DNA from: an uncultured Trueperaceae bacterium
GTDB taxonomy: Bacteria > Deinococcota > Deinococci > Deinococcales > Trueperaceae
NCBI GenBank assembly: GCA_963727505.1
Contig: CAVSGP010000002.1
Location: 64,001-128,000, forward strand
Direction of reading: 5' to 3'
DNA length: 64,000 nucleotides
The notes below the pieces were generated by a model. That model searched no databases and was not told where the DNA came from. It worked only from the letters and a program-made list of their open reading frames with translations. The position numbers and the translations under genes were made by a program. This document shows, piece after piece, positions 15,298 to 17,861 of this stretch (position 1 is its first letter; each line of letters opens with the position of its first letter).

Positions 15298-15341
15298 CCC
15301 CAGCCGACCCGGGATCGATCACGTACCCGAGCCGACTGGGG
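15298..15341 (-). promoter_or_regulatory. 16-bp stem-loop in the korA 5' leader
   Basis: CCCCAGTCGGCTCGGG pairs with CCCGGGTCGGCTGGGG using three G-U pairs only on the minus strand; TACTAT -10 upstream near 15367-15372. Confidence 0.5.
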
Positions 15342-15473
15342 CCTAAACGGTGGTTCCACCACTTCATAGTAATCCCGGCGCGTCGTCGCGCCCGCCAGCG
15401 TAGCTTCACGTGGACACAGCCTCTACCTCATCGCGGTTGGGAGGTCGTACGCTCGCCTCCACGAGCACGATAG

Positions 15474-15495
15474 CGCCCACCCCGAGGGGTGGGCG
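15474..15495 (-). terminator. Hairpin downstream of recA
   Basis: CGCCCACCCC-GA-GGGGTGGGCG inverted repeat; no strong U-tract. Confidence 0.45.
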
Positions 15496-15566
15496 TGGGA
15501 CATCTGTCACGTTGGGACACGAGCCCCTGGCAGGGGGCGCGGAGGGCGAGGCCGAGGTTCGGGCGC

Positions 15567-16658
15567 TCAGGCCTCCAGCGCGGCGTCCTTGGCCGGATCG
15601 TCGGAGCCACCGTCATCGGTGCCGAGCTCCTCGACATCGTAGGCGGCGCTGCGATGCACCTGCTTGCCGAGCTGCAGCTCGCTCATGACGCGTTCTCGGA
15701 TGGCTTGCAAGACGTCCGGGTTCTGGCTCAGGAACTCCACCGTCTTCTCCTTACCCTGCCCCAACCGCGTCTCCCCGAACGAGTACCACGACCCCGACTT
15801 CTGCACCACCTCCACATCACTCGCCACATTCACCAGATCCCCCACCGCATCGATCCCCCGACCGAACATGATCTCCACCTCCGCCTCCCGGAACGGCGGC
15901 GCCACCTTGTTCTTCGTCACCTTCACCCGCACGCGGTTCCCCACCTTCTCCGCGCCCACCTTCACATCCCCCTTACGCCGCACCTCCATACGCACACTCG
16001 AATAGAACTTCAACGCCCGCCCCCCCGGCGTCACCTCCGGATTGCCGTACAACACCCCGATCTTCTCCCGCACCTGATTGATGAAGATCGCCGTCGCCTT
16101 ACTCTTCGACAACACCGCCGTCAACTTCCGCAACGCCTGCGACATCAACCGCGCCTGCAACCCCACATGCGCGTCCCCCATCTCCCCCTCCAACTCGGCG
16201 CGCGGCGTCAACGCCGCCACACTATCGATCACCACCACATCCACCGCGCCCGAACGCACCAACAACTCCGTGATCTCCAGCGCCTGCTCCCCCGAATCCG
16301 GCTGACTCACCAACAACTGCTCGATATCCACCCCCAACGCCCGCGCATACGACGGATCCAACGCATGCTCCGCATCCACGAACGCCGCCACACCCCCCAC
16401 CGCCTGCGCCTGCGCCACCACATGCAACGCCAACGTCGTCTTCCCCCCCGCCTCCGGACCATAGATCTCCACCACCCGACCCCGAGGCACACCCCCCACC
16501 CCCAACGCCACATCCACCGACAACGACCCCGTCGAAATCACACCCGCCGCCAACGACCGCACCTGCTCCTCACCCAACCGCATCACCGCGCCCTTCCCAA
16601 ACTGGCGCTCGATGGTGCTCAGGGCGAGGTTGAGAGCCTTCTCCCGTTCCTTGTCCAT
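15567..16658 (-). CDS. recA: Recombinase RecA
   Basis: GPEAGGKTT Walker [54 protein letters not shown] before MDKERE. Confidence 0.98.
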
Positions 16659-16710
16659 GGTGTTGCTCCCTCCGTGCCTGGGGCCCGTGGGCGCAACGTA
16701 CACGCCCGTC

Positions 16711-16847: not shown

Positions 16848-17861
16848 CTACGCCGCCAGCACCTGCCGCACCGCTTCGAGCACGCGGCGCGCGTCGGGGC
16901 GGTAGTGGTGCTCGATGGCGCTGAAGGGCGGATAGGGCGCGTCCCAGCCCGCAACTCGCAGCACCGGGGCCTGCAACGACCAGATGGCGTCCTCGGCGAT
17001 GCGCGCTGCCACCTCGGCACCGAACCCGCCGATCTTCCGGGCCTCGTACACGACCACCGCACGACCCGTCTTCTCGACCGAGGCCAGCACGGTCTCGGCG
17101 TCGAAGGGCGTGAGCGTCTCCAGGTCGATCACCTCGAGCTCGACGCCCTCGCGGGCGGCGACCTCCGCGGCCTTGAGGCACACCTCCACCATGCCGCCGT
17201 AGGCGATGAGCGTCACGGCGCTCCCCTCCCGCACGACGCGCGCCTTGCCGAGCTCGACCCGGTAGTGCCCGTGAGGCACCTCGGCCTTCACCGAGCGGTA
17301 GAGCTTGATGGACTCCAGGAAGAACACGGGGTCCGGGTCCTCGATGGCGGCGAGCAGCAGCCCTTTGGCCCGCTCGGGGCTCGACGGGATGACCACCTTC
17401 ACGCCCGGCACGTGCGCCAGGATCGCCTCCGGGGAGTCGGCGTGCTGTTCCGGCGTGTGCACGCCTCCTCCGTAGGGCGCCCGGATCACCATCGGTACGG
17501 TGTAGCGGCCGCGCGTGCGGTGCCGGTAGCGGCCCAGGTGGGACAGGATGTGGTCGAGGGCGGGGTACATGAAACCGGCGAACTGGATCTCGGCGACCGG
17601 CCGCATGCCGGCCAGGGCCAGGCCGATGCCGTACCCGACGATGCCCGCCTCGGACAGCGGGGTGTCGAACACGCGCTCCTCGCCGTAGCTGTCGCGGAGC
17701 CCGTCGCTCACCCGGAAGACGCCGCCCATGCCGACGTCCTCCCCGAACAGCAGCACCCGCGGGTCGCGCTCGAGCGCGATGTCGAGCGCGTCGTGGATGG
17801 CCTGCACCATGGTCATGCTGCGCACGCTGGCCTCCACCTTGCTCCCGGCGGCCTCAACCAT
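16848..17861 (-). CDS. 2-oxoacid dehydrogenase E1 beta subunit
   Basis: [36 protein letters not shown] motifs. Confidence 0.92.

Follow-up and report, generated by a model that had tools for sequence, protein, structure and literature searches.

Why should the middle of a recA gene, but not its two ends, be written with few C-ending codons? The gene lies at positions 15567-16658 of the window, by which we mean the whole stretch of 64,000 nucleotides analysed here (positions 64,001 to 128,000, forward strand, of contig CAVSGP010000002.1 in assembly GCA_963727505.1, from an uncultured Trueperaceae bacterium). The host assembly is referred to as G000; the recA gene in the window (copy 1) is on its contig C2, and a second recA gene (copy 2) is on contig C9, together with both tuf genes. 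The cytosine-poor block of copy 1 lies within a tract shared with copy 2, the two copies evolve in concert, and the signature is confined to the tract. Across about 75 relatives, its extreme form depends jointly on the presence of a tightly homogenised gene pair and on NucS without MutS/MutL. The gene and its parts are as follows.

15567-16658, minus strand: recA copy 1, 363 codons and a TGA stop, the ATG at 16658 being taken as the start; Pfam domains RecA and RecA_C
15735-16604, minus strand: block purged of C (G/T-ending codons), codons 19-308, from a two-breakpoint likelihood fit, the skew profile and the codon table
15671-16613, minus strand: tract shared at 100% identity with recA copy 2 (G000:C9:351401-352343) and interpreted as a gene-conversion tract
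15671-15734, minus strand: 3' margin of the tract, in which the copies are identical and C-ending codons are normal, from sequence comparison
15570-15670, minus strand: C-terminal tail specific to copy 1, with normal codon usage and no similarity to the tail of copy 2
16614-16658, minus strand: N-terminal codons specific to copy 1; codon usage is normal, and the corresponding part of copy 2 is a diverged homologue
16668-16673, minus strand: GGAGGG, a putative Shine-Dalgarno-like motif as read from the sequence, 9 nt upstream of the recA ATG

A cytosine-poor block inside a homogenised tract

Both recA copies encode canonical domains. The RecA domain (PF00154) is matched with E-values of 2.1e-134 and 5.2e-135 over profile positions 1-262 of 262, and RecA_C (PF21096) with about 9e-21 (9.3e-21 for copy 1). 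The translation of copy 1 contains GPEAGGKTT, which we take to be the P-loop (Walker A) motif. The limits of the block come from a maximum-likelihood fit of two breakpoints to C at third positions in the coding sequence starting at the ATG: C occupies the third position in 27 of the 290 codons inside the block (16604 down to 15735), against 38 of 74 in the remainder of the gene. The plus strand has 136 G and 428 C at 15735-16602, a GC skew of -0.518, and the ends of the gene are flat (-0.009 at 15567-15734 and +0.059 at 16603-16658). In 200-nt windows, the plus-strand skew runs from -0.43 to -0.58 over 15700-16599 and is about zero on either side. The sharply bounded, C-poor core claimed in a preliminary description of this DNA, made from the sequence alone, is therefore real, and the base counts given there are exact (9 G and 31 C at 16501-16560, 25 G and 20 C at 16861-16920, plus strand).

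The codon table of the block is extreme. GCG outnumbers GCC by 31 to 1, GTG occurs 44 times and GTC never, ACG 11 times and ACC never; leucine is encoded by TTG (22) with two CTG and no CTC, aspartate by GAT (11) with one GAC, and serine AGT (5) is used to the exclusion of AGC. ATC (9/1) and TTC (6/1) are mostly retained. Third positions in the block are 0.77 G, 0.09 C, 0.135 T and 0 A, compared with 0.39 G, 0.50 C, 0.06 T and 0.045 A in the whole genome. At four-fold degenerate sites G-ending codons far exceed T-ending ones (T share, 12 of 155). The GC content is 0.65 in the recA core and 0.57 in tuf, and 0.70 in the genome. The shift had been described as synonymous, which it is not entirely: valine makes up 14.7% of residues in skewed cores and 9.6-10.6% in unskewed orthologues, isoleucine 3.9% and 6.6-7.2%, and the fraction of G+T at first positions is 0.659 versus 0.53-0.54. 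Not only C but also A is being replaced, which means a drive from amino to keto bases.

This composition is rare in the genome. Over 32,529 windows of 600 nt the GC skew has a mean of 0.002 and a standard deviation of 0.070, and only five places exceed an absolute value of 0.39: both copies of recA, both copies of tuf, and a single sqdB-like gene. Among 2,179 open reading frames (ORFs), tuf and the two recA genes are the only outliers rich in G at third positions, the next ORF having a GC skew at third positions (GC3 skew) of +0.41. As regards translational codon adaptation, the preferred codons of the block are not common to other genes among these ORFs, in which ribosomal protein genes were not singled out by name. 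The EF-G-like gene adjoining tuf has no flagged window around it in the 600-nt skew scan.

The second recA copy (G000:C9:351348-352505) encodes a full-length RecA; read by eye, it appears to adjoin a CinA-like gene. The two genes are 100% identical over 943 bp, window 15671-16613. The preliminary description had predicted such a copy, with identity ending at the borders of the block. This is so at the 5' side, where the block begins 9-12 nt after the end of the tract at 16613, and not at the 3' side, where identity continues to 15671 and the block stops 64 nt short of it. Beyond the tract, the N-terminal codons are homologous and diverged, and the C-terminal tails are unrelated.

Many members of the family, MutS-bearing ones among them, have two recA genes whose cores are homogenised over about 950-1040 bp. 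In the skewed genomes with both copies recovered, within-genome identity is 100% (G000), 99.4-99.5% (G003), 99.0% (G123), 99.7% (G056) and 97.8% (G140), and cores from different genomes differ by 1-8% within the host genus and by 19-28% between genera. The copies are thus closer within a genome than orthologues are across species, so the pair evolves in concert; the repeated homogenisation that had been proposed agrees with copies 97.8-100% identical within genomes whose cores are up to 8% apart among species of the host genus. The borders of the signature follow those of the tract. In recA of the same five genomes, the skew sets in 0-5 codons from the 5' end of the identity tract and ends 27-85 nt before its 3' end. 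A similar unskewed 3' margin is seen in tuf (last 15 codons) and in a pair of Crp-type genes in G123 (70 nt).

In G003/G008 the tract reaches the start codon, which provides a natural experiment on recoding. The 15 added codons show three C>T changes (GAC>GAT, ACC>ACT, GCC>GCT) and two A>G changes (AAA>AAG, AAG>AGG), against one in the opposite direction, T>C (ATT>ATC). The numbers are small, and the result is only suggestive.

The tuf genes had been proposed as a control, and they carry the same signature in a stronger form. The two copies (G000:C9:397945-399162 and C9:647858-649076) are 99.67% identical over 1219 bp and are C-poor from codon 2 to 15 codons before the stop, with third-position fractions of 0.65-0.69 for G, 0.01-0.03 for C and 0.27-0.34 for T. 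tuf is the gene most strongly affected by the signature. Both copies are frameshifted in the assembly by an extra base near 398730, with one more some 35 nt on in the second copy, and the three mismatches and one gap between the copies all fall within one 35-nt patch. The tuf frames of relatives are intact (405-449 amino acids), and the frameshifts look like consensus errors rather than broken genes.

A sharp compositional border inside one gene is also what would be expected if a foreign allele had replaced the native core and brought its donor's composition with it, or if the assembly were chimeric, as the preliminary description allowed. Several observations argue against both. The core is found in eight of nine genomes of the same genus at 90-99% nucleotide identity, and all eight are skewed alike (the ninth gives a 29-nt match only); the signature is present in several sister genera as well. 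RecA protein identity declines with taxonomic distance, from 84-99% within the genus to 80-83% for sister genera and 67-77% for other genera and families of the order. The closest named records are Trueperaceae metagenome-assembled genomes at 77-81% identity, with none above 81%, and neither protein identity by taxon nor the RecA tree places the closest relatives outside the host lineage. We know of no organism with such codon usage genome-wide.

Metagenome contigs of two studies show the junctions themselves. One of 977 nt, from run X3 (study P2), matches 15300-16253 with zero differences and bridges the 3' junction. Contigs of X1 (study P1) and X3 branch at exactly 16613, and those of X1 also at 15671; the alternative continuations at these branch points read as the flanks of recA copy 2. 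No contig spans the whole stretch, and unitigs starting 30 nt inside the repeat were not counted as bridging. One of the two samples may be the source of the host assembly. In short-read drafts the contigs break at the recA core, as expected of a repeat. For practical purposes the foreign-allele and chimera readings are refuted, and we regard either as very improbable.

Dependence on a homogenised pair and on the repair background

For recA, 46 genomes of the family were sampled, which differ in recA copy number and in the mismatch-repair genes they carry, and the core was measured over codons 6-292. One unpublished genome, G145, enters the tallies of this sample only and supports no claim. 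All five genomes with NucS only and both recA copies recovered (G000, G003, G123, G140 and G056) are skewed, with GC3 skews from +0.73 to +0.88. Five NucS-only drafts in which the recA core lies at contig breaks (G006, G018, G137, G146 and G015) range from +0.51 to +0.83. NucS-only genomes with a single recA inside a contig (G132, G133, G139 and G011) have values of -0.15 to -0.24; the link to a repeat made in the preliminary description is thus sustained, the single-copy gene being unskewed in the same repair background. None of eight genomes with two recA copies and MutS is skewed (-0.57 to 0.00): G031, G034, G135, G012, G149, G142 and G144, which lack NucS, together with G138, which has both enzymes.

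With the exception of G135 (95.0% over 1038 bp), these eight pairs are 99.2-100% identical over 947-999 bp, and their tract borders nearly match those of the skewed tracts. A homogenised tract thus occurs without skew, which means that skew is not what makes conversion possible. Two more NucS-only genomes agree with this. G139 has a skewed tuf (+0.66) alongside its unskewed single recA, and in G032, where the recA copies are 81-94% alike and the tuf copies 91%, both are essentially unskewed. Together with the comparison of recA groups, these cases indicate that the extreme signature requires ongoing homogenisation plus a NucS-only background.

The survey of tuf covered more ground. The sample searched for tuf, NucS_C and MutS_I comprised 121 genomes of the order, and tuf was measured over its first 258 codons in 72 of them and in 3 more. 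G004 and G005 were looked at for MutS_V instead of MutS_I, and their matches are of MutS2 grade or absent. A tuf GC3 skew of at least +0.66 was found in 12 of 15 genomes with NucS and without MutS_I, and in none of the 60 others, whose maximum is +0.57. The remaining three of the 15 have skews of +0.02, +0.25 and +0.26. A C fraction of 0.04 or less at third positions of tuf occurs only in the group with NucS and without MutS_I.

Neither half of this background is sufficient alone. NucS was considered as a sufficient cause and rejected: genus g11, with both enzymes, is unskewed in tuf (12 NucS-bearing genomes, all at -0.17 or lower), as are G138, g26 and g29, which also carry both; the exception is g15, at +0.52. 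Loss of MutS was likewise rejected, because g12, with neither enzyme, is unskewed in five of five genomes.

A third gene family repeats the pattern in one genus. A Crp/Fnr-type regulator forms a homogenised pair in G000, G004, G003 and G123 and a diverging pair (94.8%) in G140, and is single in G056. In G123 the two copies are 100% identical over 683 bp and have a GC3 skew of +0.83, compared with -0.30 for the single copy of G056. In G123 the skew sets in at the tract's 5' border and continues as far as the stop codon, beyond which a final 70 nt of non-coding tract are unskewed. The pair in G000 (C5:221088-221798 and C9:357711-358421) is 99.86% identical over 711 bp, with different N-termini.

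These distributions bear on the idea that selection acts on the messenger RNA or its transcription. Because Rho loads at C-rich, G-poor sites, a C-poor, G-rich message would evade it, or else it would fold less. Selection would then recode heavily used genes such as tuf and recA, and the duplication would be one more sign of high demand. In line with this, recA, tuf and the G123 Crp pair all have the bias on their sense strands, tuf is the gene most strongly affected, and the last tuf codons are exempt, as if late termination were harmless. Against it, tuf and recA are the only outliers rich in G at third positions among the 2,179 ORFs of the genome scan, the next reaching +0.41, and no window around the EF-G-like gene is flagged. 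The single-copy recA of NucS-only relatives and the duplicated recA and tuf of MutS-bearing relatives are all unskewed, and the recoding of a Crp-type regulator is limited to one genus. Within recA, 18 C-rich codons at the 5' end would still permit Rho loading, and the signature's 3' limit goes with the tract border rather than with the stop codon. The selection reading is already weakened by these observations, and we consider it improbable. Rho was also tried as a lineage factor and rejected: Rho_RNA_bind is present in 31 of 31 relatives, skewed or unskewed, and so does not separate them. The frame with the Rho RNA-binding domain in the host (G000:C4:261611-261826) is 674 amino acids long in the host genus and about 415-450 in several other genera of the order, which suggests a long N-terminal extension in the former.

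A NucS-set bias as candidate mechanism

The mismatch-repair genes of the host are those of a NucS-only genome. An ORF at C6:76855-77919 matches NucS_N (5.3e-18) and NucS_C (3.2e-24). Neither MutS_I nor MutL_C was found in the genome, which is 97.4% complete, in searches whose controls matched, and the sole MutS_V match is of MutS2 grade. The predicted NucS ends in ...AQPSLFAPA, in which QxxLF presumably resembles the bacterial (beta) clamp-binding motif.

Published work on NucS, of which the accessible text is drawn on here, suggests how the enzyme might act on conversion tracts. The Corynebacterium enzyme is stated to digest G-G, G-T and T-T mismatches and none else (PMC6159521). A second study describes NucS as suppressing homeologous recombination, that is, recombination between diverged repeats, and as restricted among bacteria to Actinobacteria and Deinococcus-Thermus; in the phylum that includes Acidimicrobiia, it states, genomes usually carry NucS and no MutS/MutL (PMC5290159). 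In Haloferax, deletion of nucS is described as severely impairing gene conversion (PMC11276520, in its accessible sections). The two bases that accumulate in our tracts, G and T, are exactly those that NucS recognises in the published enzymology.

We therefore favour, with a probability of roughly 0.55, a strand-asymmetric bias in gene conversion or repair that is set by NucS and spreads sense-strand A/C to G/T changes between the copies. In this scheme, for which we infer NucS as the cause, the route would be either biased conversion or unrepaired errors of repair synthesis. Recurrent gene conversion would keep the recA core identical between the copies, and the composition would be a by-product of mismatch handling within the conversion tract. 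If it is mostly the antisense strand that comes in or is newly made in the heteroduplex, a resident sense C or A that meets incoming G/T information would form a C-A, C-C or A-A mismatch. NucS would not see such a mismatch, which could then survive and become fixed in both copies. The opposite difference would give a mismatch of the G/T type, which would be cut and so eliminated. In the long run, A and C on the sense strand would give way to G and T throughout the tract wherever the protein permits: four-fold sites would go to G, pyrimidine two-fold sites to T, CTG to TTG, and some isoleucines to valine. An antisense 3' end that requires tens of nucleotides of homology and is extended toward the start of the gene would produce both the sharp 5' edge and the 3' margin. 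The preference for the antisense strand might come from transcription-linked initiation or from RNA-templated synthesis; this is the weakest step of the mechanism.

Replication was considered as the source of the polarity and rejected. Strand C9 + is leading throughout; tufB, tufC and recA copy 1 are co-directional with replication, and recA copy 2 is head-on. The two recA copies are thus oppositely oriented, yet have the same G/T-rich sense strand.

Several observations weigh against a NucS-set conversion bias. The strand polarity it requires has no explanation, with recA copy 1 running with replication and copy 2 against it, and the large excess of G-ending over T-ending codons at four-fold sites means that an extra pull towards GC is needed. 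The Crp pair of the host genus, 99.86% identical, is unskewed in G000, G004 and G003 (-0.05, -0.09 and +0.11). Moderate tuf skew, from +0.30 to +0.57, is found in MutS-bearing genera that lack NucS (all 13 genomes of g13, g20, and parts of g16 and g25), and g15, with both enzymes, reaches +0.52. All NucS-only genera belong to one family and are closely related, and a RecA tree (bootstrap unconverged, root arbitrary) puts the skewed rows in one group plus G015; this close kinship implies few independent events, maybe one or two. Finally, a single-copy gene of the host has the mirror-image bias. This gene (G000:C9:387228-388442, minus strand), which encodes an NAD-dependent epimerase and is SQD1/sqdB-like by reading, has third positions of 0.76 C, 0.11 A, 0.11 G and 0.01 T, and no paralogue was found for it in the G000 genome. 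The mirror bias is seen in the host genus only (G000, G004 and G003, -0.74 to -0.81), and the gene is normal in three sister genera (-0.09 to -0.20).

A purely mutational origin would dispense with biased repair. The sense strand, repeatedly exposed as single-stranded DNA during recombination or transcription, would undergo deamination of C to U and of A to hypoxanthine, and conversion would spread the changes. The direction, from amino to keto bases on the sense strand, fits. Most changes in the young tract extension of G003/G008 are C>T and A>G transitions, GC content is lower in the blocks than in the genome, and the T fraction at third positions of tuf is high (0.27-0.34). Yet deamination does not predict the unskewed identical recA and tuf pairs of MutS-bearing relatives, and nearly every four-fold site has G rather than T. 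Products of the G-U type should moreover be repaired, given that NucS recognises G-T according to the accessible text of PMC6159521. The same unexplained strand polarity is required here as well. Cytosine damage on exposed single-stranded DNA, put forward in the preliminary description, would agree in direction; by itself it does not predict the dependence on a NucS-only background, and A is lost too. Overall we consider a mutational origin unlikely.

The NucS-set bias could have a wider reach. In NucS-only genomes, including those of Actinomycetota, Deinococcota and NucS-bearing archaea, ectopic conversion may rewrite long-lived paralogue pairs to G/T on one strand, a process that could be called keto drive. 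This generalisation is tentative, and we give it somewhat less than an even chance.

Relation to known systems, and other repeats

In GC-biased gene conversion, a bias in heteroduplex repair acts like selection; G and C gain on both strands alike, and GC content rises. The host tracts are similar in that composition is shifted where conversion is frequent. They differ in that G and T are favoured on one strand and C is lost; the strand-independent gain of G+C that marks GC-biased conversion was not found in the recA or tuf tracts, nor was raised GC content (0.65 and 0.57 against 0.70). Ordinary skew from replication or transcription, with G in excess of C and T in excess of A on the leading or sense strand, has the same sign as the signature, which is about ten times stronger (0.5 compared with about 0.03-0.05), spans no more than about 0.9-1.2 kb, and is the same whether the copy is co-directional or head-on. 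Fungal repeat-induced point mutation (RIP) changes C to T on both strands of duplicated sequence, inactivates the copies and stops at the edge of the duplication. As in RIP, a mutational signature marks a duplication and stops at its edge; unlike in RIP, the genes are intact, the copies identical, and the changes largely silent and on one strand.

A parallel for the pairs themselves is the concerted evolution of tufA and tufB in Salmonella and E. coli, where two dispersed housekeeping copies are near-identical over a tract with unrelated flanks and mismatch repair shapes the tracts (PMC5485169, in its accessible part). Conversion of tuf in Salmonella is described there as initiating uniformly and proceeding in both directions, and strand-specific recoding is not reported in that part of the paper. 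The host differs in having a recA pair besides the tuf pair, a tract that lies inside the gene, and one strand purged of both C and A. The parallels with NucS/EndoMS repair are a two-domain NucS without MutS/MutL, a published recognition spectrum limited to G and T that matches the enriched bases, and a known action on recombination between diverged repeats (accessible text of PMC6159521, PMC5290159 and PMC11276520). The asymmetry treated in these texts, as far as they are accessible, concerns replication errors, not gene conversion.

Our literature search, which did not extend to supplements, found no account of paralogues recoded on one strand, of base composition linked to NucS, or of two recA genes in this family. 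We lean, by a narrow balance, towards regarding the signature as a variant of biased gene conversion, with an asymmetry of strand and base class (A/C to G/T) not found in print.

If this is correct, the signature represents a non-adaptive force whose direction is set by the mismatch-repair system of the lineage. It would explain why the most expressed gene of the cell is written in the "wrong" codons, and it would provide a genomic read-out of NucS action and of recombination polarity. Should keto drive be real, recoded tracts would record which strand is transferred in recombination, with codon preference overridden and the protein shifted from isoleucine to valine. On the practical side, recA and tuf are common phylogenetic and typing markers, and they can be compositionally distorted and evolve in concert. 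Codon-based screens for foreign DNA or for expression level would misread such tracts, and short-read assemblies break there.

The possibility that every repeat is skewed was ruled out, since other repeats of the genome are unskewed, namely the 711-bp Crp pair, a 554-bp pair and, at the end of a contig, a GH42-like piece of 1267 bp. Contigs C10 and C3 are similar over about 44 kb in collinear blocks at 85-94% identity and of normal composition; this similarity could reflect a second related replicon or element, or strain heterogeneity. A further 4819 bp are 100% identical and inverted between C14:130680-135498 and C4:1073779-1078597 of G000, at two contig ends, and probably represent an unresolved repeat that ends both contigs.

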